Assembly (NCBI GenBank): GCA_964357615.1
Contig: CAYHMC010000006.1
Span: forward strand, 7,144 to 71,143
DNA: 64,000 nucleotides
Direction: 5' to 3'
Origin: an uncultured Candidatus Saccharibacteria bacterium
Lineage (GTDB): Bacteria > Patescibacteriota > Minisyncoccia > UBA6257 > JACOXY01
The notes beneath the pieces were generated by a model that was given only the letters and a program-made list of their open reading frames with translations, was not told where the DNA came from and did not search any database. How positions within the stretch are numbered: the stretch's first letter is position 1; the number at the start of each line of letters is the position of its first letter. Made by a program: the position numbers and the translations under genes. This document shows positions 7,427-45,849 of this stretch, one piece after another.

Positions 7427-7661
7427 GGGATGCGGAGATATTTTTTAGACTCATAGGCCTTCGCAAAATGAAATCTCTCTCACTCATTGGGAGAAACTAT
7501 TTCGTAAAACATCGAACTCGACCTCGCTTCGCTTGGGACTCATACAGCGATGTTTTTCTGTTTCTGCCTCTTCGTTCTGAGATTTCTATTTTACTCCGAC
7601 AATATTCCCTAAAAAAATATCTCCTTATCTTTTGGTTGTGGTTGTTGTATAATTAATAGCA

Positions 7662-9889: not shown

Positions 9890-10834
9890 CTATTTTTCTA
9901 AAAGTTTTAATTTAATCTTATAAGCATTGCCGTGATGCAACATTCCCAAGTAAGAATTAGCTGCTTGAATATTTTCATTTCCTTTCATTCTTTTAAACAT
10001 TCTTCTTTTAGTAGCCGTGCGCAATACGCGATGACTAGGAAAGTGCACCCAACCTAAAAAATCAAGACCAGAAGCAAGAGTTTTCATATAAAGTTTTTGG
10101 GGATGTAATTCTAAGCCCAATCTATAATATAAAAAGTTTTTTATTGGTTCTATTTGATTTTCTAACCATTCCCTATTTTCCGACAAAATCACGAAGTCAT
10201 CTGCATAACGAATATAATAATTAGCTTTAAGCCTGTGCTTAACAAATTGGTCAAATTCATTCATATAGATATTCACAAAAAGCTGAGATGTTAAGTTGCC
10301 AAGCGGCAGACCAACTCCCGATCTAGTGAAAAAACTATCAATTATATTTTGAAGAAGCCTAAGTAAATCTTTGTCCTCAATTCTTGCGCACAAAATATCC
10401 ATCAAAACTTGGTGGTGAATATTAGCAAAGAATTTTTTTATATCACATTTTAGAATGAAGCAGGTTCGAGTATTGTTTTTACTAACTTTGTAGCCAAAAC
10501 TCTTAAACCTATCTAATGCTTTATGAGTTCCCTTATTTATTCTGCATGAATAAGAATCTGAAATAAAGGTTTTATCAAAAAATGGATATAGTTTTCTATA
10601 AATTGCGTGATGCAAAAGTCTGTCCCTAACAGAGGCTTTGTGTATATTTCTTGGTTTTGGATCAGAGATATTAAAAGCTTTATAATTTCCGTGACTGTAG
10701 GTTTTATTTAAAAGCTCCTCATACAGCAATAGAATATTGTCCATGAATTTTAAAGAAAATTCTTGAACATCTTTTCTATTATGCTTACCCTTTACAAATT
10801 CTCTCCAAGCTTCTAATATATTTTCCACTCCCAA
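9890..10834 (-). CDS. diversity-generating retroelement (DGR) reverse transcriptase
   Basis: 314 aa with RT motifs and YADD (IRYADDFVIL). Motif 4 reads LPLGNLTSQLFVNIY, the DGR-specific [I/L]GxxxSQ form. The compact size is typical of DGR RTs, and it lies next to a TR/VR pair. Confidence 0.85.
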   Translation of the reverse strand: MGVENILEAWREFVKGKHNRKDVQEFSLKFMDNILLLYEELLNKTYSHGNYKAFNISDPKPRNIHKASVRDRLLHHAIYRKLYPFFDKTFISDSYSCRINKGTHKALDRFKSFGYKVSKNNTRTCFILKCDIKKFFANIHHQVLMDILCARIEDKDLLRLLQNIIDSFFTRSGVGLPLGNLTSQLFVNIYMNEFDQFVKHRLKANYYIRYADDFVILSENREWLENQIEPIKNFLYYRLGLELHPQKLYMKTLASGLDFLGWVHFPSHRVLRTATKRRMFKRMKGNENIQAANSYLGMLHHGNAYKIKLKLLEK

Positions 10835-10873
10835 AACTTCTTCGAAATTTTAAGTAAACATAATTTTCATTAT

Positions 10874-10902
10874 AAAAAAAAAACTTTTAATCCCCCCCCC
10901 CC
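10874..10902. repeat. homopolymeric A10 and C11 tracts in the divergent RT/Avd intergenic region
   Basis: aaaaaaaaaa (10874-10883) and ccccccccccc (10892-10902), located between the RT start (10834, minus) and the Avd start (10931, plus). Confidence 0.9.
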
Positions 10903-10930
10903 ACGGAATAATATTTCAATTATTCAACAC

Positions 10931-11251
10931 TTGATACGTGCATATAAACTTTGGCACGGATTCTTGCCTCATATCCCAAAAGACGCACGCTACACTGTTG
11001 GCGCCAAAGTAGATTCTGCTTTTATTGAAACAGTTGAAGCGGTGTTCCGTGCAAGTATCACAGCTAAAGATAAAAAAATTGCCTACATCGAAGAAGCTTC
11101 GATAAAATTGGATATAGTTAAATTTTTCCTACAGATTATCTGGGAAATCAAAGCATTGGATACTAAAAAATATGCTCTTATCTCTGCAGAACTAAATGAG
11201 ATAGGCAGAATGATTGGCGGCTGGCTAAGACAAGCTATGAGCCGAAACTAA
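10931..11251 (+). CDS. Avd-like accessory variability determinant (four-helix-bundle protein, TIGR02436-like), TTG start
   Basis: 106 aa. The pattern ...IPKDARYTVGAKVDSAFIETVEAV...KIAYIEEASIKLDIVKFFLQIIWEIKAL...ISAELNEIGRMIGGWL matches the four-helix-bundle / Avd family. It is adjacent to the RT and TR. Confidence 0.65.
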   Translation: MIRAYKLWHGFLPHIPKDARYTVGAKVDSAFIETVEAVFRASITAKDKKIAYIEEASIKLDIVKFFLQIIWEIKALDTKKYALISAELNEIGRMIGGWLRQAMSRN

Positions 11252-11298
11252 CCACCAAACATTTTCTCCCTACTATTTTATAAAACATTTATTGCCAG

Positions 11299-11427
11299 TT
11301 GCCGGAAACTGCCACTCGACCGTTCGAGTTCTGATCATTGTCGAGCCAGTTCCAGTTGAGATACCAACGCTTGCCATCCTGATTGAGGTACGGGACGTTC
11401 CGGTTGCCGTTCTCGTTCACCACGATT
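11299..11427 (-). repeat. DGR template repeat (TR), about 129 bp, coding orientation on minus strand
   Basis: About 87% identical to 11768-11896. All 17 mismatches are T on the plus strand here (A on the minus strand). The minus-strand translation is Asn-rich (VVNENGNRNVPYLNQDGKRWYLNWNWLDNDQNSNGRVAVSG) with AAC codons. Confidence 0.85.
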
Positions 11428-11683
11428 GTACGAAAAATCACCCACGTCACCACCCCTTGAATTATCTTGAGGTTGTATATTATTCGGAATCTATAATTCT
11501 CTGATTTCTCGCACCAAGTAGCAAAAATGTGTAGCGTATAGATACAACTCTCTGGCAGAAAAATTTTCCGCTGCCATTCTCGTTTGTATTATCGCAGAGT
11601 TCAACCGCGTACAACCTTAGCCGTACGCGCAACGTCTACTATCTATATTTAAAATATCATAAGTTTAATAAATAAAAAAATTA

Positions 11684-11701
11684 CCCTTACTTTCGTAAGG
11701 G
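11684..11701 (-). terminator. rho-independent terminator downstream of DGR target gene (CCCTTAC-TTTC-GTAAGGG plus T-run on minus strand)
   Basis: A 7-bp perfect stem with a 4-nt loop is followed on the minus strand by TTTTTTT (A-run 11674-11680 on plus). It lies about 60 bp after the target stop. Confidence 0.6.
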
Positions 11702-11763
11702 ATTTCGGTCCAAGGGACCAAGGGACAAGAAGTCCCCAGGTCCCAAGGATCCGAATGCCAATG

Positions 11764-12378
11764 CTACTTGCCGGAAACTGCCACCCGACCGTCCGAGCGC
11801 TGACCATGGCCGAGCCAGTCCCAGTGGAGATACCAACGCTTGCCACCCTGATCGAGGTACGGGACGTCCCGGTCGCCGTTCTCGCGCACCACGACCAAGC
11901 CCGGAAAATCGATGTAGACTTTTCCGAGAAGAGCCATGAACTCGGGGAACTCGTCTTGATGGTCGACCAGCCAGACTGCTTGCTGATAACCGAGAGTTGG
12001 CAAAGAGATGATTCTTCGCTCGTATTCGACGCCACCGACCGAACCTTCGTCAGGCCGGAGAACCGTTCCGAGGGATAGCGTTACGGCTTCCGTCGGCGAG
12101 TTGTCGCGCTCGATGGATTTGATCCACGAGAACTTCGCTTGAATCTCTGCGATAGTCGGACGTGGAAGTGCGGGAATCTGAATCGCGACGTCCTCCATTT
12201 TCCGGAAGAAGCCTGCTGCAGCGATGAGCTTCGCGACGAACTCGTCGGTGAGCAACTTCAACGTATCCTCCGAAAGGTCGAGAACTGCTTCTTCTGATCG
12301 ACTGACCTTCAGTCCGCCGATGATGCGCGTTGTGATGGTCGTGAGAAACCCGAATGCCGAACCGATTTGTGACTTCAT
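11764..12378 (-). CDS. DGR target (variable) protein, 204 aa, GC-rich, VR-encoded C-terminus
   Basis: The minus-strand ORF ends 4 nt beyond the VR. Its GC content (mid-50s percent) is far above the flanking genes (about 33%). The C-terminal WYL.W.WL ligand-binding-like segment is diversified. Confidence 0.75.
   Translation of the reverse strand: MKSQIGSAFGFLTTITTRIIGGLKVSRSEEAVLDLSEDTLKLLTDEFVAKLIAAAGFFRKMEDVAIQIPALPRPTIAEIQAKFSWIKSIERDNSPTEAVTLSLGTVLRPDEGSVGGVEYERRIISLPTLGYQQAVWLVDHQDEFPEFMALLGKVYIDFPGLVVVRENGDRDVPYLDQGGKRWYLHWDWLGHGQRSDGRVAVSGK
11768..11896 (-). repeat. DGR variable repeat (VR) at 3' end of target gene
   Basis: Partner of the TR. It encodes VVRENGDRDVPYLDQGGKRWYLHWDWLGHGQRSDGRVAVSG at the target protein's C-terminus. 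The substitutions are AAC/AAT/GAT to CGC/GAC/GGT/CAC/CAT/GGC. Confidence 0.85.
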
Positions 12379-12651
12379 TGTACTACTCCTTTTTCCATGG
12401 TTTACCCCTCATTCTCGCACCATGCGAAAACCCCAGGCTCACCATTGTACTGCTTCTATTATACCATATTTAACCTATCTTTGCAATACCACACAAAACC
12501 TATAATTTATAACGCTTATATCTAAGCAGAATGTCGCGAAGGTCAAAAAGCTTGGTATCCGAAGGATTTTTTGACCGAGCGTCAAATTCCAACTTTTCGC
12601 AGGAAAAAGTTGGAATGTTTCTGCGTGATATAAGTGATATAAATTATCCCC

Positions 12652-13809
12652 CTACCTCAACTTATACCTTTCCTTTATAAGCTTAGTAATTTGTTTTGCA
12701 ATAGTATGATATTCAAATTTTGCTAGGGCATGCTCCGCTCCAGCTTTACCCATTTTTTCGCGCAAATCTTTATCTGTTAGGAGTTTAAGCAACGATTCTG
12801 CAAGAGAATTAACATCAGCACGATATGCAAATGTTTTTGGTTTATCAAAAATAATTTTATGGTCCTCTTCATAACCCATATCTTTATAAACCCATTCTTC
12901 ATCCAACTCTACAGTATCAGCCACAGGCGCTAAAAAACCAGTGACATCTTTAATGATTGTCTCCTTAGGCCCCATATGGTCAATTGAAATAACTGGTTTA
13001 CCACATGCTTGAGCTTCTACCTGAATCATTCCAAAACCCTCAAGACGAGATGGAGCTGCGTATATATCACAAGTGTTTAATAAAACATTCATAAACTCGT
13101 ATGACATTGGGCCTTCTGCAAATACAACGCGATCTTTATCCTCTCCTAATTCTTCAAGCAATGCTTGTTCGTCATCATAGTGTGAGTCCGCACTCTCCCC
13201 TCCCCAAAGTTTACAAATATATTTCCAAGAAATACCTTTCGTTCTTAACTCATCTTGTATTAACTTAAGAGCTTTAAAAACTTCTTGAGCTCCTTTTGAA
13301 GTAACATCTCCTCCGGCAGTTAAGATAACTACATCGCTATCTTCTATGCCAAGCATTGCCTTCATTGTCTTAATTTGCGGATCAGATTTTTTTAGTGGAT
13401 GACGACAAGCAGGATCGAAGCCAATATGTGCCACTTCAAAATTTTTAACATTTGTTCCGTCTCGCTTATAAGTTTCTTTCACCCACTCACTTGTAACTAA
13501 GACAAGTGGAAGTTCCCCTAAATCTTTTTGATAGTTTGCAACCCAGCCGTCAGCCACAAGCCAAGGCACAGAATTAATGCCAAATTGCTTTGCATGATGA
13601 ACAATGTCCGGTGTATTATTCCAAAACCCCACACCAACTGCAATATCTGGTTTAAAATATTTATAAGTCCATTCTTTTTGAAACTCAGCTCCTATACTAC
13701 ATGGCATAACATCTTCTCCGTTTTCTTTCATACCAGTATACAAAAAATGACCTTGCATCGAAAGACCATCGGGTTCAGGAGGATACGCATATAAAATTAC
13801 AGACTTCAT
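12652..13809 (-). CDS. glycosyltransferase family 4 (group 1) protein
   Basis: 385 aa with EGFGMIQVEAQACGKPVISID and a GT-B fold signature. Confidence 0.75.
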   Translation of the reverse strand: MKSVILYAYPPEPDGLSMQGHFLYTGMKENGEDVMPCSIGAEFQKEWTYKYFKPDIAVGVGFWNNTPDIVHHAKQFGINSVPWLVADGWVANYQKDLGELPLVLVTSEWVKETYKRDGTNVKNFEVAHIGFDPACRHPLKKSDPQIKTMKAMLGIEDSDVVILTAGGDVTSKGAQEVFKALKLIQDELRTKGISWKYICKLWGGESADSHYDDEQALLEELGEDKDRVVFAEGPMSYEFMNVLLNTCDIYAAPSRLEGFGMIQVEAQACGKPVISIDHMGPKETIIKDVTGFLAPVADTVELDEEWVYKDMGYEEDHKIIFDKPKTFAYRADVNSLAESLLKLLTDKDLREKMGKAGAEHALAKFEYHTIAKQITKLIKERYKLR

Positions 13810-14087
13810 CCCATACGAAATAGGAAGCGCTTTAAACGATATTTTATATATCGTTTGCCTTTCCCACTTTTTAAATATAATTCTCTCGACCTGGCATCAT
13901 CTTTATTCATACAAGCTTCGTAATAAATTACATTAAATGGTCCTCTGCCTTTGGTATAGGTTGATTTTCCAGCATTATGTTCTTTAAAGCGCTTCCGTAA
14001 ATCGTTAGTAAGACCAGTATATAATTTATTGTCCTTCTTGCTCTGTAAAATATAAGTATAGTACATAGGGATTTCGTACGGGATCAT
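13806..14087 (-). CDS. GIY-YIG nuclease domain protein
   Basis: 93 aa. YYTYILQSKKDNKLYTGLTNDLRKRFKEHN is the GIY-YIG/URI motif. ATGA overlap with the downstream GT4 gene. Confidence 0.7.
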   Translation of the reverse strand: MIPYEIPMYYTYILQSKKDNKLYTGLTNDLRKRFKEHNAGKSTYTKGRGPFNVIYYEACMNKDDARSRELYLKSGKGKRYIKYRLKRFLFRMG

Positions 14088-14088
14088 T

Positions 14089-14766
14089 TTATAATTTATT
14101 AAATTTTTCTACTCGCGCACAACTCTTGCTTTCAAATGAATTGAGCTCAAAGCCATAGAAATCATTAACAATTTTAATCTTCTTTTTGTAAACGTTTTTA
14201 CTTAGCTTTACCAAAAAATCAGATTTTTCTTTGGGTTGTGCATATTTATCGCTACTGTGCATTTTGTAAGCAAAGCAATAGCGACTATGAGCAGAAATAT
14301 TTTTATTTTTTAGAAGCTTAGAAACGGCTTGATTTACGCCCTTATGTCTTTGATTTCCATATTCGCCGTCTTTAGCATGAGTAAAGATATAATCGAAAGT
14401 TTTACTTTTAAGACCTTTTATAATAAGTTTTTCAGCCATTTGGCTAAGACTCTTTATGCTTAGACGATCATCATCATCTTCCAAGTCAGTCATTATGCCT
14501 TTGGCATTAAATAGTTTAGCAACTTGGTTAAACCTTGGACTGCGGTCAGGGTCATTTTTTTTGCATAACGCAAAGATTATCCAATTCACTTTTGGGTTAG
14601 CGATAATTGTGCCTCCCATCCAAATTGTTTCATCATCGGGATGAGCAACAACTACAAGCGCTCGCCCACTTTTAAGATTTAACTCCACAAGATTTATTAT
14701 AGCTCTCTTCTCTCTGCCTTGCAACTCACGCCTCGCGACAGACGCGCGAGAAAAAAGGCAAAACAA
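14089..14766 (-). CDS. PIG-L/LmbE family N-acetylglucosaminyl deacetylase
   Basis: VVVAHPDDETIWMGGTI motif. Confidence 0.7.
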   Translation of the reverse strand: MFCLFSRASVARRELQGREKRAIINLVELNLKSGRALVVVAHPDDETIWMGGTIIANPKVNWIIFALCKKNDPDRSPRFNQVAKLFNAKGIMTDLEDDDDRLSIKSLSQMAEKLIIKGLKSKTFDYIFTHAKDGEYGNQRHKGVNQAVSKLLKNKNISAHSRYCFAYKMHSSDKYAQPKEKSDFLVKLSKNVYKKKIKIVNDFYGFELNSFESKSCARVEKFNKL

Positions 14767-14767
14767 C

Positions 14768-15724
14768 TCAAGATAATATTATTACTTCTTCTTCTAAATC
14801 AATTCCGAATTTTTCTTTAACTTTATTTTTTGCAAGCCAAATTAAACTCTGCACATCTGTTGCGCTTGCGCCCTGAACATTAACAATAAAGTTGGGGTGT
14901 TTCGGGGAAATCATAGCTCCACCATAGGACACTCCTTTAAGTCCAGACTCTGAAACTAAATAAGCAGCCGGAACAACAGGAAATGGATCTGTTTTAATAA
15001 CATCTTTAAGCTTAGAAGCTACTGATTTTTGAATTAAATCAACTGGAACATTTTTAAATATACTACCAATACTTGGATACTCCATCGGATGGCGATTATT
15101 GCGATAGTCAATTTTTTCTTGAATTGCTTTTTTAATTTTTGTTTTTTCTCCTTTTTTTAGCAACAGCTCTGCTTCCAAAATTATATAGTCACTATTTTTT
15201 TTAAATAAACTATCGCGATAACCAAACCCACATTCTTTATTGGAGAAATTTTCCACAGCCATTGCTTTGTTATCTATTTTTAAAAATCGATTTAGAGAAT
15301 ATTTCAAAGCTGAAACAGATTTAACAATATCTTTAATTTCACCACCAAAACAACCTGCATTACCACGAATTGCGCCACCCAATGTTCCAGGAAGTCCACC
15401 AGCCCACTCAAGGCCAGATAGTTCATGGTTGATTGTATAACTTAAAAGTTCAGAGACTGGCGTTCCTGCACCAATTTTTAATTTTGTATTACTGATTTTC
15501 TTAATATAGGAAAGTGCTGGTTTAATCACTAGTCCATCAAAACCAGAATCACTGAATAAAATATTTGTTCCACCACCTAGCAAAAAAATATTTTGCTTAT
15601 CTTTAAGCGCACTAAGAAGCGACTCCTTTAAATCAGGGATTGTTTTGGCTTCGTAAAAAAATTTGGCGGTACCACCAATCAGATAATTGCTATGAGATGA
15701 GAGGCTAACATTTTTTCTAAACAT
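14768..15724 (-). CDS. murB: UDP-N-acetylenolpyruvoylglucosamine reductase
   Basis: 318 aa. FAD-binding PCMH-type N-terminus (GGGTNILFSD) and a MurB C-terminal domain. Confidence 0.8.
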   Translation of the reverse strand: MFRKNVSLSSHSNYLIGGTAKFFYEAKTIPDLKESLLSALKDKQNIFLLGGGTNILFSDSGFDGLVIKPALSYIKKISNTKLKIGAGTPVSELLSYTINHELSGLEWAGGLPGTLGGAIRGNAGCFGGEIKDIVKSVSALKYSLNRFLKIDNKAMAVENFSNKECGFGYRDSLFKKNSDYIILEAELLLKKGEKTKIKKAIQEKIDYRNNRHPMEYPSIGSIFKNVPVDLIQKSVASKLKDVIKTDPFPVVPAAYLVSESGLKGVSYGGAMISPKHPNFIVNVQGASATDVQSLIWLAKNKVKEKFGIDLEEEVIILS

Positions 15725-15751
15725 ACTTAGATAATATTTCTGTATTAAAAA

Positions 15752-16165
15752 GACTTCCGAAGCAGCTCGAGTTCATCTAAAAGATATCTCCGTTCGCGAT
15801 ATTAGCCAATTTCTTAAAGACCAAGAAGCGACGACAAAGATGTACTTACTGCTACATCAAGAAGGAGTCGACGACGGTATTTAAGAAATTGGCTTTATCC
15901 CTTTGGGTTTTGGCAGTTTTGCAAAGATACAGCGTTACTTCTCGGAGATGTAGCTCAAGCTACTAACCTCCTCGTCGCGTCTCGTATCTTTACAAAACTG
16001 CACTCAACGCGAACTGGATATATTTTTTAGATGAACTCTTGATCACCCTTTATGACCGCAGGGGTTGACCCCAATTCACAATGTTGTAAGAGGGTGCGCG
16101 GCCCACGGTCATAAAGAATGACCATAGAGCGCATCTAACCTTCTTAAGCTGCTTCGGAAGTCTGC
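15752..16165. other. about 415-bp highly structured non-coding region closed by a 17-bp perfect terminal inverted repeat (candidate large ncRNA or DNA element)
   Basis: AGACTTCCGAAGCAGCT (15752-15768) pairs with AGCTGCTTCGGAAGTCT (16149-16165). Inside are a nested 20-bp stem (15769-15788 with 16021-16043), a roughly 230-bp imperfect palindrome (15790-16020) and a second branch with an 11-bp stem (CTTTATGACCG / CGGTCATAAAG). Confidence 0.5.
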
Positions 16166-16254
16166 TTATATAATAACATATTTGATCAATTATTTGAAAA
16201 TATTGAATCTGATTCAATATTCTAATGTAATGTTGGTTAAAATAAAAACACAAA

Positions 16255-16277
16255 ACCCCCGTTTGACGGGGGGCTAA
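16255..16277 (-). terminator. rho-independent terminator (CCCCCG-TTTGA-CGGGGGG, T-run on minus strand)
   Basis: A GC stem is followed on the minus strand by TTTTGTGTTTTTATTTT. Confidence 0.6.
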
Positions 16278-16473
16278 GTGCTTGTGAATTGGAGTAATTC
16301 CTTTACCCGAAGGCAAAGGCATTCGCCCACTTACTTAATCATTATACACCAACATAGCATATTTTGTCAAGTGAGAATGCGGAAAACTGTCAATTATATA
16401 TGACAAATATAATAAAACCCCGAACTTAAGTCGGAGTTTTGATAGTTTTTACAAATATAATCTAGTAATTTAC

Positions 16474-17589
16474 TCAAGTCTTTTTCAACACATGTTCATC
16501 AGAAACAGCTCCAAGAATTTTTTCGATTTTCATAGAAGCTCCAACACCAATTAAACTGCCGAATACGCTACCAGAGACATACGCTGGCGCATAAGATGGT
16601 TGCATATCTGCTTGTGTAATATGTCTAAAAACCAAATACCATATTCCGTTTGAAAAAATTGATGCAATGGCATGATAGGCTATATTGTTTCTATTTCGAG
16701 ATCTACTAACCAAAGAAAAACTTATGCTTTGTGCAGAAGCAAAAGCAAACATTAAAGAAGGTCCTGCGAAATTTCCAAACCAGAAAGTTAATGCTACGCC
16801 CAAAAATAAAATTGTAATGACCGGAACAAAAATTGAGGGATGCTCATCTTCAAGATGACCATCTGCAGTTGCACCAATATAAGACTCTATCCACATTGAA
16901 ACTTTTTGACCAGACATTCCGCCAATAATATTACCAAGCATATACGGTGGCAAAAGTTCATAAGAGAGATTTCCCAAAACAAGTTCACGGAACACCAGAT
17001 ACCACAAAAATCCATCAATGGATGCGGATATTGCGTGATACCATGGCTTGCTGGTATTGCGTGACCTGCGCACCAAAGAAAAACTCATATTCTTTAAAGA
17101 CGCCAAACAAATTAATAAAATTTGTGTTTTTGTATCACCACCACCAAGAATAACGGCAAATATTATTAGTATAAAAAATAATAATAAGAACTTTCGGCTT
17201 GTCCTCTGAGTTATATCCCCCTTCTCTCTGGGACGAGTCGTTATATTAAATCTCTTTTCAATTTTAGATGAAAGCTGTGACCCAGTAACACTTCCTAAAA
17301 CAGTTGCCACAACATAAGGTCCAAAAAACCAAAGTGACATTTCTTGGCTAAGCAATAATCGCATCGTAGTATAAAATGCCACACCCGAAATCAAACTACC
17401 TAACGCATAATAGAGATAACTATTTCTTGTGCCACCTCGACTCTCTATGGAGTAAGAGGAGTTCTGGACATATGCCACTACAGCAATTAGAATGGCAAGC
17501 TGAGGATTTTTAATAAATGCGGCAATAACTATCAAAGAAATAAATATCAAAAACCAGCGAAATGTCTTTAGTTCACTCCAGTCAACCAT
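16474..17589 (-). CDS. polytopic membrane protein with internal tandem duplication
   Basis: 371 aa with about 10 predicted TM segments. Two repeats each contain SLV(R/S)RSRN...YHAI(S/A)...WYLVFR. Confidence 0.5.
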   Translation of the reverse strand: MVDWSELKTFRWFLIFISLIVIAAFIKNPQLAILIAVVAYVQNSSYSIESRGGTRNSYLYYALGSLISGVAFYTTMRLLLSQEMSLWFFGPYVVATVLGSVTGSQLSSKIEKRFNITTRPREKGDITQRTSRKFLLLFFILIIFAVILGGGDTKTQILLICLASLKNMSFSLVRRSRNTSKPWYHAISASIDGFLWYLVFRELVLGNLSYELLPPYMLGNIIGGMSGQKVSMWIESYIGATADGHLEDEHPSIFVPVITILFLGVALTFWFGNFAGPSLMFAFASAQSISFSLVSRSRNRNNIAYHAIASIFSNGIWYLVFRHITQADMQPSYAPAYVSGSVFGSLIGVGASMKIEKILGAVSDEHVLKKT

Positions 17590-45645: not shown

Positions 45646-45849
45646 ATGGCAATTATCATAAACATCGACATTATGTTAGCTAAGCGAAAAATGAGCGTCA
45701 CCGAACTCGCCCTTAAAGTCGGAATTACAATGGCTAATATTTCTGTATTAAAAAACGGAAAAGCGAAGGCTATCCGATTATCAACATTAGAGGCGATTTG
45801 CAAAGCGTTAGAGTGCCAGCCCGGAGATATTTTAGAATATAAAAAATAA
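45646..45849 (+). CDS. XRE-family helix-turn-helix transcriptional regulator
   Basis: 67 aa with an LAKRKMSVTELALKVGITMANISVLKNGK HTH. Confidence 0.75.
   Translation: MAIIINIDIMLAKRKMSVTELALKVGITMANISVLKNGKAKAIRLSTLEAICKALECQPGDILEYKK

Follow-up and report, generated by a model that had tools for sequence, protein, structure and literature searches.

A structured region upstream of murB in a CPR genome as a probable composite of a 5' leader and an inserted palindromic element

The intervening sequences (IVS) of 23S rRNA known from Salmonella, Leptospira and Coxiella lie inside the 23S gene, in helix 25 or helix 45, and lead to fragmentation of the rRNA. Among the structured repeats of bacterial genomes some, such as the Correia elements, are cut by RNase III and change the fate of the mRNAs carrying them. 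The CPR/Patescibacteria account for a large share of bacterial diversity, and to our knowledge their non-coding RNA biology is almost unexplored. Their rRNA genes are rich in insertions that lack ORFs and are situated at the tops or bases of stem-loops, and these are presumed to be intervening sequences which RNase III cuts (PMC11270868).

Here we describe a region of about 415 nt upstream of murB in a CPR genome, at positions 15752–16165 of a 64-kb window (by which we mean the whole stretch of 64,000 nucleotides that was analysed). We propose, at a probability of about 60%, that this region is a composite on the minus strand, which is the strand of murB, and that it consists of a murB 5' leader together with a separate inserted structured repeat element. 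The proposal is built on the anatomy of the region, its conservation and covariation, the insertion polymorphism of the element and the adjacency of some of its copies to rRNA. The comparison set is the window and seven related Parcubacteria (CPR/Patescibacteria) murB loci, giving eight leaders from about four lineages, and for the inserted element five full copies from four genomes. From these sequences we infer transcription, a regulatory outcome, processing by RNase III and a mechanism of spread. The preliminary description had read the region on the plus strand; in our reading, what remains apart from the insert belongs to murB as its 5' leader, on the minus strand.

Fold and coding content of the region

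Folded as the plus strand, the sequence from 15746 to 16168 has a minimum free energy of -179 kcal/mol (z = -13.1), and as the minus strand one of -195 kcal/mol (z = -15.0); none of 100 shuffled versions was as stable as the native sequence. The perfect 17-bp outer stem of the preliminary description is present (15751–15767 with 16147–16163, 17 of 17 bp) and extends to 22 nt at 91% complementarity (15746–15767 with 16147–16168); its 17-mer has just two sites in the whole window, both of them the arms of the stem, where 0.09 would be expected by chance. The near-perfect inner stem is likewise there, with 23 nt at 91% (15769–15791 with 16016–16038), and the long imperfect palindrome is real, its internal hairpins at 15804–15822/15876–15894 (19 nt, 95%) and 15913–15930/15984–16001 (18 nt, 94%) being inverted copies of each other. 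A second arm with a stem and hairpin is found, as described, at 16040–16124, where the stem 16040–16058/16106–16124 (19 nt, 84%) includes GGGGTTGACCCC. We also agree that the region holds no convincing ORF. The sole ORF of at least 40 amino acids that touches it (16050–16322, minus strand, 90 aa) has no family match and crosses the promoter-terminator unit described below, and the conserved block beneath it carries a 1-nt indel in homologues (ACATTGTG versus ACATGTG). Spurious gene calls are seen on these structures in related loci: L002 has a 130-aa call, and in both L002 and L013 murB is extended at its N-terminus.

Both the murB leader with its small RNA and the 270-nt element lie outside all Rfam 15 families, and neither was found described in our literature searches. 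A cmscan of 14500–17500 at E<=1 returned no match to any family, so the known Rfam family that the preliminary description had allowed for did not appear. Its view that this is not a standard RNase P RNA is borne out, as the whole window has no match to RF00010 or RF00011 at the gathering threshold. The homologous loci L002, L003, L009 and L013 gave no match to OLE, ROOL, GOLLD, raiA or HEARO in Rfam 15 at E<=1. RNase P, OLE, ROOL, GOLLD, raiA, ribozymes, introns, T-box, SRP, tmRNA and 6S RNA were all considered and set aside, no part of the region having an Rfam match to any of them.

Searches of sequence collections were similarly sparse in matches. Phage and plasmid records gave none by blastn; among viral contigs the outer-stem 17-mer found one single-arm chance match (L001), and a motif from the inserted element found none. 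Genome contigs, in a collection without the window's own genome, contained the 19-mer of the loop of the second arm in the L003 genome and in one chance match. Two of five metagenome matches (L008 and L012) were dismissed as chance, since they fall inside the rplW coding sequence of high-GC actinobacteria. We also set aside a link to a retron or DGR RNA through a nearby reverse transcriptase, which is part of a DGR that has a template/variable repeat pair of its own at a distance of 4 kb, and a weak similarity to the inserted element at 10349–10389 (E = 0.02), which is within coding sequence.

Arm A as a separate element

The inner arm of the region, which we will refer to as arm A (15769..16038, minus strand), is one copy of a nested-palindromic three-way-junction element of 270–274 nt. 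Its closing stem P1 (15769–15791/16016–16038) encloses hairpin H1 (15913–16001), a mini-hairpin CCC-UUU-GGG (15899–15907) and hairpin H2 (15804–15894), which has the conserved loop GAUGUAGCAGUAAGUACAUCUUUGUCGUCGCU. The family build is a closing stem of about 28 bp, a CGCG junction, two hairpins of about 100 nt and the central CCC/GGG mini-hairpin, and its length is constant. In an alignment of the five full copies (A1, four genomes) the 98 pairs of this fold are 86.6% paired and show double changes in 37 cases, a score that none of 500 shuffles reached, while slid registers were 35–42% paired. The closing stem is 96% paired across copies, with 15 of its 28 pairs changed on both sides and only the terminal GA...TC invariant, and covariance model R1 scores the copies at 243–296 bits. 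Invariant loops stand beside these covarying stems. The branched fold is better backed by covariation than a rod-like fold, which is the minimum-energy fold for L009 and L011 but has few compensatory pairs, and whose apparent 2:1 G-U/A-C ratio is biased by the way in which that structure was derived.

The distribution of arm A among relatives is variable. The leader of L003, whose murB is 62% identical to that of the window, is without arm A but retains arm B (the second arm, see below) and the closing helix, as well as the promoter, the small RNA and its terminator. L006 has arm A on the opposite side of arm B from its place in the window, and also a second, inverted copy in the spacer, so that two copies lie within 800 nt, and in L002 it is reduced to the closing stem at the L006 position. 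On further CPR contigs one copy is situated 4 nt from 23S position 1 (L011) and another 4 nt after the last 23S position (L009/L010); these copies sit 4 nt outside positions 1 and 2925 of the LSU_rRNA_bacteria model, not inside the 23S gene. Four of the five full copies are sense to the host transcript, and in all five the sense strand folds slightly better. The 64-kb window has one copy, and model R1 found no others in 148 kb of sequence, a search in which it also did not recognise the stem-only remnant of L002 or a structure at 7427–7632. Because it is absent in L003, moved in L006, stem-only in L002 and beside 23S elsewhere, arm A is a separate element that lies outside the leader core.

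This insertion polymorphism disfavours the view that the whole of the approximately 415 nt forms a single large, structured and free-standing non-coding RNA, in the size class of RNase P and OLE- or ROOL-like, with its own ends pairing. Such an RNA would account for the closing helix and several branches (z -13 to -15), for covariation in every helix examined and for a closed multi-branch domain kept in eight genomes. However, arm A, which makes up 270 of the 415 nt, is missing, relocated or shortened at orthologous loci and has independent copies beside 23S; the domain is always directly before murB in the same orientation, whichever gene lies upstream, with its 3' strand reaching the start region; and there is neither a terminator after the domain nor an Rfam match. 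A single RNA of this kind is very improbable in our estimation. The preliminary description was right that the region is non-coding, multi-branched and closed by a terminal helix, and the part of it that fails is the single free-standing RNA of RNase P size, arm A being separate. The case also serves as a warning that an 'ornate' multi-branch fold in a CPR genome can consist of a host RNA plus nested palindromic inserts.

Within the composite arm A is, in our reading, a mobile structured insert resembling an intervening sequence, its function being putative. Members of the family are gained, lost and relocated between related genomes, and the copies occupy non-coding RNA that is transcribed, next to long-range helices or at a hairpin's apex. 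Because the ends form a long perfect duplex and the fold of the host RNA is left intact, it is likely that the insert is tolerated and is probably excised or processed by RNase III. If this is true, the idea of the intervening sequence widens from the interior of rRNA to rRNA termini and mRNA leaders, and an RNase III-processed insert of this type would help to account for the unusual insertion load of CPR rRNA operons.

The same distribution could be produced by a purely DNA-level selfish element, either a foldback MITE or a single-stranded DNA hairpin element (IS200/IS605-PATE-like or REP-like), whose stems would be retained for recognition by a transposase or in replication. Presence and absence at orthologous sites, the occurrence of two orientations and the truncated derivative are consistent with this. 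Arm A is moreover palindromic at two levels, so that both strands fold and both match the family profile, and neither strand has an excess of G-U over A-C pairs, these counts giving no strand preference. The folding and model match of both strands, the one inverted copy and the lack of G-U/A-C asymmetry also fit a DNA-level palindrome. On the other side, no direct repeat that could be a target-site duplication flanks the five full copies, no terminal sequence is conserved and the ends covary freely; none of the loci examined has a transposase or any other function that would mobilise the element, and there is a single copy in 64 kb. Furthermore, internal loops hold the longest conserved blocks (the window and L006 share 38 identical nt), and every copy lies in transcribed non-coding RNA by a long-range helix or hairpin apex, four of the five in sense orientation. 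We regard a DNA-level element as unlikely. The transposon remnant bounded by terminal inverted repeats that the preliminary description offered as an alternative survives in part, and for the inner arm alone: that arm has presence/absence, both orientations and a truncated copy, but its lack of a target-site duplication and its covarying termini are unlike a classical MITE; the 17-bp ends of the outer stem, where such a duplication had been thought possible, have flanks without a direct repeat.

Constant length, invariant loops and covarying stems are also what a functional RNA module would display, and arm A may be a portable signal for processing or maturation, or a platform that binds proteins, which CPR bacteria use at 23S termini and which the murB leader has recruited. 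It lies in sense orientation at 4 nt from one or other end (5' or 3') of mature 23S, which is in keeping with this, as are the SD-like (GAGGAGG) and anti-SD-like (CUCCUCC) motifs that H1 and H2 bear. Yet the element is dispensable in the L003 leader and degenerate in L002, one copy runs antisense to the transcript that hosts it, the window and L006 place the element differently with respect to arm B, and just two rRNA contexts were seen. A dedicated function of this sort seems to us quite unlikely, and we retain the reading of arm A as a mobile, intervening-sequence-like insert.

The murB leader and the upstream small RNA

The murB gene (UDP-N-acetylmuramate dehydrogenase) occupies 14768..15724 on the minus strand (TIGR00179 match, 2.8e-64), and N-terminal alignment with homologues confirms its ATG at 15724. 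The leader core upstream of it comprises a closing helix and arm B, both read on the minus strand. The 5' strand of the closing helix (16147..16168) is one half of the inverted repeat and holds an anti-SD-like CUUCC, and the 3' strand (15746..15767) holds an SD-like GGAAG and ends 22–26 nt before the murB ATG. The helix has nearly the same sequence in L002, L003 and L006 as in the window, and is present with a different sequence in L007, L013, L015 and L016. From the helix or its predicted extension to the murB start is approximately 0–45 nt in seven of the eight genomes and approximately 105 nt in L007; in most of the eight it is predicted to abut the start codon, with non-canonical spacing in the window. 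There GGAAG is 29 nt from the ATG, a canonical SD being nearer, and as this is too far for a canonical SD, any 'RBS sequestration' would depend on the predicted extension of the helix.

Arm B (16040..16124) is a conserved hairpin whose stem covaries and whose apical region (GCGCACCCUCUUACAACAUUGUGAAUUGGGGUCAAC) is nearly invariant. Comparison among relatives bears out the structured architecture anticipated in the preliminary description, as the closed multi-branch form is kept upstream of murB in eight genomes and 16 of the 27 pairs of arm B show compensatory double changes (alignment A4). A 24-nt block of arm B is identical between the window and L003, notwithstanding only 62% identity of the murB proteins. 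The outer helix and arm B precede murB in its own orientation in all eight genomes despite differing upstream genes, so that a covarying structure in a fixed place before one gene family, as expected of a cis-regulatory leader, is found at each of the eight Parcubacteria murB loci. The domain also picks up lineage-specific perfect hairpins (L002, L016). An upstream ORF was considered for the SD-like loop and rejected, there being no conserved start or frame across genomes.

Further upstream is a unit (16243..16370, minus strand) with a predicted transcript of about 90 nt that includes a hairpin. Its promoter (16370–16341, TTGACA-18-TATAAT) has 12 of 12 consensus matches, and its intrinsic terminator (16272–16256) is followed by a U tract. 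The unit is also present in L002 and L003 and recognisable in L006, L007, L013, L015 and L016; going by consensus matches only, the promoter was found again in L002 and L003 and the terminator was flagged in L003. Compensatory changes are seen in the hairpin (CCUUU/AAAGG versus CCUCU/AGAGG). Two segments of this putative small RNA, S1 on the 5' side of its hairpin and S2 on the 3' side, are complementary to the two halves of the arm B loop. Segment S2 (16295–16282, ACUCCAAUUCACAA) is the complement of site B2 (16068..16081, UUGUGAAUUGGGGU), the two forming an inverted repeat.

The S2:B2 pairing comprises 12 pairs that across six distinct lineages are 86% paired, with double changes in five of the 12, in an alignment anchored by hand, which favours pairing; none of 500 shuffles matched the observed covariation, and slid registers were 26–40% paired. 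Uninterrupted runs are 9–15 nt per genome, with p<=0.001 in five of the eight. The S1:B1 pairing has uninterrupted 10-nt runs (p approximately 0.01–0.02) in five of eight genomes, its register moves by 2–3 nt between lineages, and interruptions break it in L003, L006 and the window. The sites are ordered S1 with B1 and S2 with B2, which differs from what a simple inverted duplication would give. RNAduplex applied to the whole small RNA against arm B was uninformative (z -0.1 to -1.5), pairing of the G-rich terminator being dominant, and was replaced by anchored pair counts and run tests. MAFFT/RNAalifold misaligned the hairpin of the small RNA across lineages and recovered the terminator alone.

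A plausible mechanism follows from this arrangement. The long closing helix pairs the 5' end of the leader (CUUCC) with the stretch before the murB start (GGAAG), enclosing arm B, and S1 and S2 may dock on the two halves of the invariant arm B loop. Docking would place the hairpin of the small RNA beside the stem of arm B in a four-way junction of the CopA-CopT type, which may alter the stability of the closing helix and thereby ribosome access to murB. Such a complex might arise in trans, with the terminated small RNA as partner, or in cis on read-through transcripts. If real, the pairing would be a testable handle on the control of peptidoglycan precursor synthesis in bacteria with tiny genomes and few transcription factors.

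The approximately 90-nt unit may instead be a riboswitch-like transcription attenuator that senses a metabolite or protein, with murB expressed only by read-through and the pairing of S1 and S2 with arm B intramolecular. In favour of this, a promoter, a conserved hairpin with conserved flanks and an intrinsic terminator are found directly upstream of murB in all eight genomes. The case is strengthened by the nature of the candidate second promoter that would serve the leader itself (16170..16198, minus strand, TTCAAA-17-TATTAT with an upstream TG, predicted to start at the first base of the closing helix), as it went unflagged in L002 and L003 when these were scanned for the consensus and the match is only -10-like, which makes it a weak candidate. 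Nevertheless, a -10-like hexamer, read by eye from the sequences, is situated 5–7 nt before the closing helix in seven of the eight genomes; the segment from promoter to terminator is short, and we identified no alternative antiterminator pairing and no Rfam riboswitch match. Attenuation is in our view a rather doubtful explanation.

A more far-reaching proposal, which we advance tentatively and think improbable as a whole, is that the region combines a new mobile class of three-way-junction 'intervening' RNA in CPR with a lineage-wide RNA-RNA switch of murB, both absent from Rfam 15 and the literature searched. The element would insert beside long-range helices and supply RNase III sites that free the 23S termini, and would have been co-opted in an mRNA leader; the tandemly encoded small RNA would dock on the leader hairpin loop through two sites to give the four-way junction. 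A murB switch at the RNA level, if true, would be a form of control found in neither Rfam 15 nor the literature searched.

Comparison with known systems

Arm A resembles the IVS and the CPR rRNA insertions (PMC11270868) in being an ORF-less sequence in the 100–300 nt class whose ends form a long near-perfect duplex. It also shares with IVS a place at a helix top or base within a structural RNA that is highly transcribed, a sporadic occurrence among relatives and the preservation of the host fold. Unlike IVS, it lies just outside mature 23S (4 nt from either end) and in an mRNA leader rather than in helices 25 or 45, and its interior is a conserved three-way junction whose loops are invariant; its excision by RNase III is a prediction. 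With ERIC, BOX, RUP, Correia/NEMIS, REP/BIME and the Rickettsia palindromic elements it has in common an imperfect palindrome at transcribed intergenic or leader sites, variable presence, both orientations and truncated derivatives. It differs from these repeats in having no target-site duplication and terminal repeats that covary without conserved sequence, in an apparently low copy number (one in 64 kb), and in its unusually constant length, nested-palindrome interior and strongly conserved loops.

The region as a whole recalls RNase P RNA, OLE, ROOL, GOLLD, raiA and HEARO in its size, terminal closing helix and several branches, but differs in that it has no match to them at E<=1, in its modular make-up, where the major arm is dispensable, and in its link to a single downstream gene. 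The murB leader is similar to RBS-sequestering leaders and riboswitch platforms, with a long-range helix that pairs an anti-SD-like sequence with the region before the start and an intrinsic terminator upstream, whereas it has no identified aptamer or ligand and carries lineage-specific perfect hairpins (L002, L016). The small RNA differs from antisense RNA-target loop complexes with four-way junctions, such as CopA-CopT of plasmid R1, and from the C-rich, SD-targeting small RNAs of Gram-positive bacteria in being encoded in tandem on the strand of its target rather than antisense to it, with an interaction that is predicted, and in that its target loop is not the murB RBS but lies 60–400 nt upstream, inside the closed domain. 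What it has in common with these systems is a small terminated RNA with two hairpin-flanking segments complementary to the two halves of a target loop, and an anti-SD-like seed (CUCC) opposite GGAGG or GGGG.

The murB intergenic region and its relatives

The gap between murB (14768–15724, - strand; TIGR00179, 2.8e-64) and a 371-aa ORF (16474–17589, - strand; no Pfam family match and a marginal NCBIfam match only, E = 5e-4) spans 15725–16473. The flanking genes are all on the - strand, as are the transcription signals of the gap: a terminator of the upstream gene found by signal scan (16440–16414), a sigma-70 promoter of perfect consensus (TTGACA-18-TATAAT; 16370–16341), an intrinsic terminator (16272–16256) and a weaker extended -10 promoter (16198–16170), whose predicted start is the base at which the outer stem begins. 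Because of the gene content (ftsZ, ftsA, IMPDH, ribonucleotide reductase and a DGR reverse transcriptase; G+C 36%) together with the nearest murB proteins, which are at most 64% identical and come from MAGs labelled Candidatus Liptonbacteria, Candidatus Harrisonbacteria or Patescibacteria group, we assign the window to a Parcubacteria-type CPR genome that lacks close sequenced relatives.

The nested stems reported in the preliminary description are real, each being recovered by a repeat finder: the outer stem (15746–15767 / 16147–16168; core 17/17 bp, the 17-mer occurring nowhere else in the window), the inner stem (15769–15791 / 16016–16038) with two 18–19-bp hairpins inside it (15804–15894 and 15913–16001), and the second arm, arm B (16040–16058 / 16106–16124). 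Both strands fold far beyond shuffled sequence (z = -13.1 and -15.0 for + and - respectively).

Retrieval of the DNA around murB homologues, and its comparison with the window, provides further insight into this ~415-bp region. The related locus L003 (GCA_030680955.1) is syntenic (IMPDH, a 923-aa gene, murB, PIG-L, GT4) and has, in murB orientation, the consensus promoter seen in the window, a terminator preceded by a predicted hairpin RNA of ~90 nt, and then the same outer stem (AGATTTCCGAAGCAGCTCGA / TCGAGCTGCTTCGGAAGTCT), which stops 7 nt short of the ATG. Here the stem encloses arm B only, with a 24-nt loop block identical to that of the window and a stem that differs through compensatory changes; the inner element, arm A (15769–16038 in the window), is missing. 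The same leader occurs in L006 (murB 61% identical), where arm A is placed 5' of arm B rather than 3' as in the window, and a second, inverted arm A copy forms the apex of another hairpin in the spacer. L002 (murB 64% identical) retains the arm A closing stem alone, at the L006 position; the interior has been lost, and the join runs through the same ATATATCCAGT...GAACGGAGATAT ends. Because arm A can thus be absent, elsewhere or reduced to its stem, we conclude from these alignments that the region is a composite of a conserved murB leader and a separable 270-nt insert; the single large structured RNA first proposed is not supported.

Searches for known families were empty. Rfam 15 matched no family in 14500–17500 at E<=1 and four tRNAs, with nothing else, in the whole window; the homologous loci matched rRNA only, and blastn against phage and plasmid collections gave no matches. 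Within reach of covariance models this excludes RNase P, OLE, ROOL, GOLLD, raiA, HEARO, introns, ribozymes and riboswitches.

Elsewhere at the locus, two ORFs look like lineage-specific insertions since the otherwise syntenic L003 lacks both: a 93-aa GIY-YIG (group I intron endonuclease-like) ORF at 13806–14087 between the PIG-L and GT4 genes, and the 371-aa ORF, which sits between a 924-aa gene and the small RNA. The window also holds a complete diversity-generating retroelement (9890–12378), with its reverse transcriptase at 9890–10834 on the - strand (RVT_1, 1.3e-22) and a 133-nt template repeat (11293–11425) that is 87% identical to the variable repeat (11762–11894) at the 3' end of a 204-aa ORF (11764–12378).

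The murB leader and its putative small RNA

The leader organisation is common to eight genomes (the window, L002, L003, L006, L007, L013, L015 and L016): a strong promoter, a predicted ~90-nt RNA with terminal terminator, a -10-like box, a long closing helix of lineage-specific sequence, arm B, and the 3' strand of the helix adjoining the murB start. As the upstream gene is different in each of the eight, the structure travels with murB. The search for covariation in related genomes, as the preliminary description had advised, found it in arm A and in the arm B stem, the latter with double changes in 16 of 27 pairs. The apical region of arm B is almost invariant and includes GAAUUGG(A/G)GGUC, with an SD-like GGAGG in four lineages.

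A small-RNA segment, S2 (ACUCCAAUUCACAA, 16295–16282), is complementary to the arm B loop (UUGUGAAUUGGGGU, 16081–16068). Over six distinct sequences, aligned by hand anchoring, the 12 pairs are 86% paired and five show double changes, such as GUG/CAC in the window lineage to CAG/CUG in L013 and L016; none of 500 shuffles reaches the observed covariation, and slid controls are 26–40% paired. Uninterrupted runs extend for 13–15 nt (p<=0.001 in five genomes). A further segment, S1, located 5' of the small-RNA hairpin, pairs with the other half of the loop over runs of 10 nt in five genomes (p ~0.01–0.02); in the window, L003 and L006 this pairing has interruptions. S1 pairs with the 5' half of the loop and S2 with the 3' half, whereas an inverted duplication would give another order. 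Pairing at both sites would set the small-RNA hairpin against the arm B stem in a predicted four-way junction of the kind formed by the CopA-CopT complex.

L003 (3571–3840) and L006 (2341–2560) have a further hairpin, absent from the window, in the spacer from the small-RNA terminator to the closing helix, which covaries between them (AAUCCCGCAUCAAU / AUUUGGUGCGGGAU versus AACCCAGCACCAAU / AUUUGGUGCUGGGUU). Extra perfect hairpins lie in the leaders of L002 (324–608; 13/13 and 16/16 bp) and L016 (2147–2490; several), and the closed domain seems, from these cases, to be a hot spot of hairpin gain. Leaders also attract spurious ORF calls: L002 has a 130-aa ORF called on the strand opposite, and in both L002 and L013 murB was extended at its N terminus. 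A 20-nt exact direct repeat, TAATATTTCTGTATTAAAAA (blastn E = 2.7e-4), has one copy in the stretch that separates the closing helix from the murB start (15732–15751) and one within a small helix-turn-helix regulator gene (45735–45754).

The arm A element

A metagenome scan with a motif of the conserved arm A loop yielded three CPR contigs. In L009 (= L010) the element begins 4 nt past the last 23S rRNA position, with the 5S rRNA gene 204 nt further on, and in L011 it ends 4 nt short of 23S position 1, both copies being in rRNA sense orientation. The five full copies (270–274 nt) share a branched fold with a ~28-bp closing stem, CGCG junction, hairpin H1, CCC/GGG mini-hairpin and hairpin H2, in which 98 pairs are 86.6% paired with changes on both sides in 37; 0/500 shuffles reach this value and slid controls are 35–42% paired. 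Since H1 is similar to H2 in reverse complement, a rod-like fold is also possible, and in L009 and L011 this has the lowest energy; its extra helices, however, fall on invariant columns with few compensatory pairs, and covariation favours the branched fold. Both strands match the profile and covariance model, as the element is palindromic at two levels. Counts of G-U versus A-C in arm A single out no strand; the sense strand is more stable by just 2–11 kcal/mol, yet in all five copies.

The mobile-element alternative raised in the preliminary description holds in part, for these inner 270 nt only, and not as a classical MITE: no target-site duplication was found at the arm A copies, and the terminal repeats covary and are not conserved in sequence. 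The covariance model found no further copies in 148 kb.

A second intergenic structure (7427–7632; fold z = -2.8) has a closing stem of ~18–25 bp, GATGCGGAGATATTTTTT / AAAAAATATCTCCTTATC, similar in sequence to the inner portion of the closing stem in arm A; it is not recognised by the covariance model and, on this resemblance, may be a degenerate or distant relative. The loop motif TAAGTACAYCTTYGTCGTCGCT in L008 (2222–2243) and L012 (260–281) was judged a chance match arising from the search itself, the site being the GKYTFVVA codons at the start of ribosomal protein L23 (rplW) of high-GC actinobacteria. In L010 the final 441 positions of the 23S rRNA model, at its 3' end, cover 1328 nt (12169–13496), so that the gene has ~890 nt of inserted sequence in domain V/VI, a common situation in CPR.

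Proposed working and known counterparts

From this small, wholly computational set of five arm A copies and eight leaders, we propose that murB mRNA would start at or upstream of the closing helix. In this helix GGAAG is paired with a CUUCC close to the 5' end, and predicted folds carry the helix across the start region; it would thereby hold back translation and shield the 5' end. Docking of the upstream RNA on the arm B loop would change the stability of the enclosing helix, and could occur in trans, as a terminated small RNA, or in cis, with the RNA forming the 5' portion of a read-through transcript. The small RNA and murB could be transcribed separately or as a single attenuated transcript; the second promoter, flagged in the window and not in L002 or L003, is a weak one. 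Arm A would be a passenger: its ends would form a long perfect duplex beside the host helix, which would leave the host fold intact, and the insert may be cut or removed by RNase III.

Neither the leader with its small RNA nor arm A is in Rfam 15 or in the literature searched. Both are of recognised kinds, the leader being kin to cis-regulatory leaders with a small-RNA partner and arm A to structured palindromic inserts. The closest described phenomenon to arm A is in CPR rRNA genes: a study of these reports numerous insertions without ORFs, placed at the top or base of stem-loops, and proposes that RNase III cleaves them as intervening sequences (PMC11270868).
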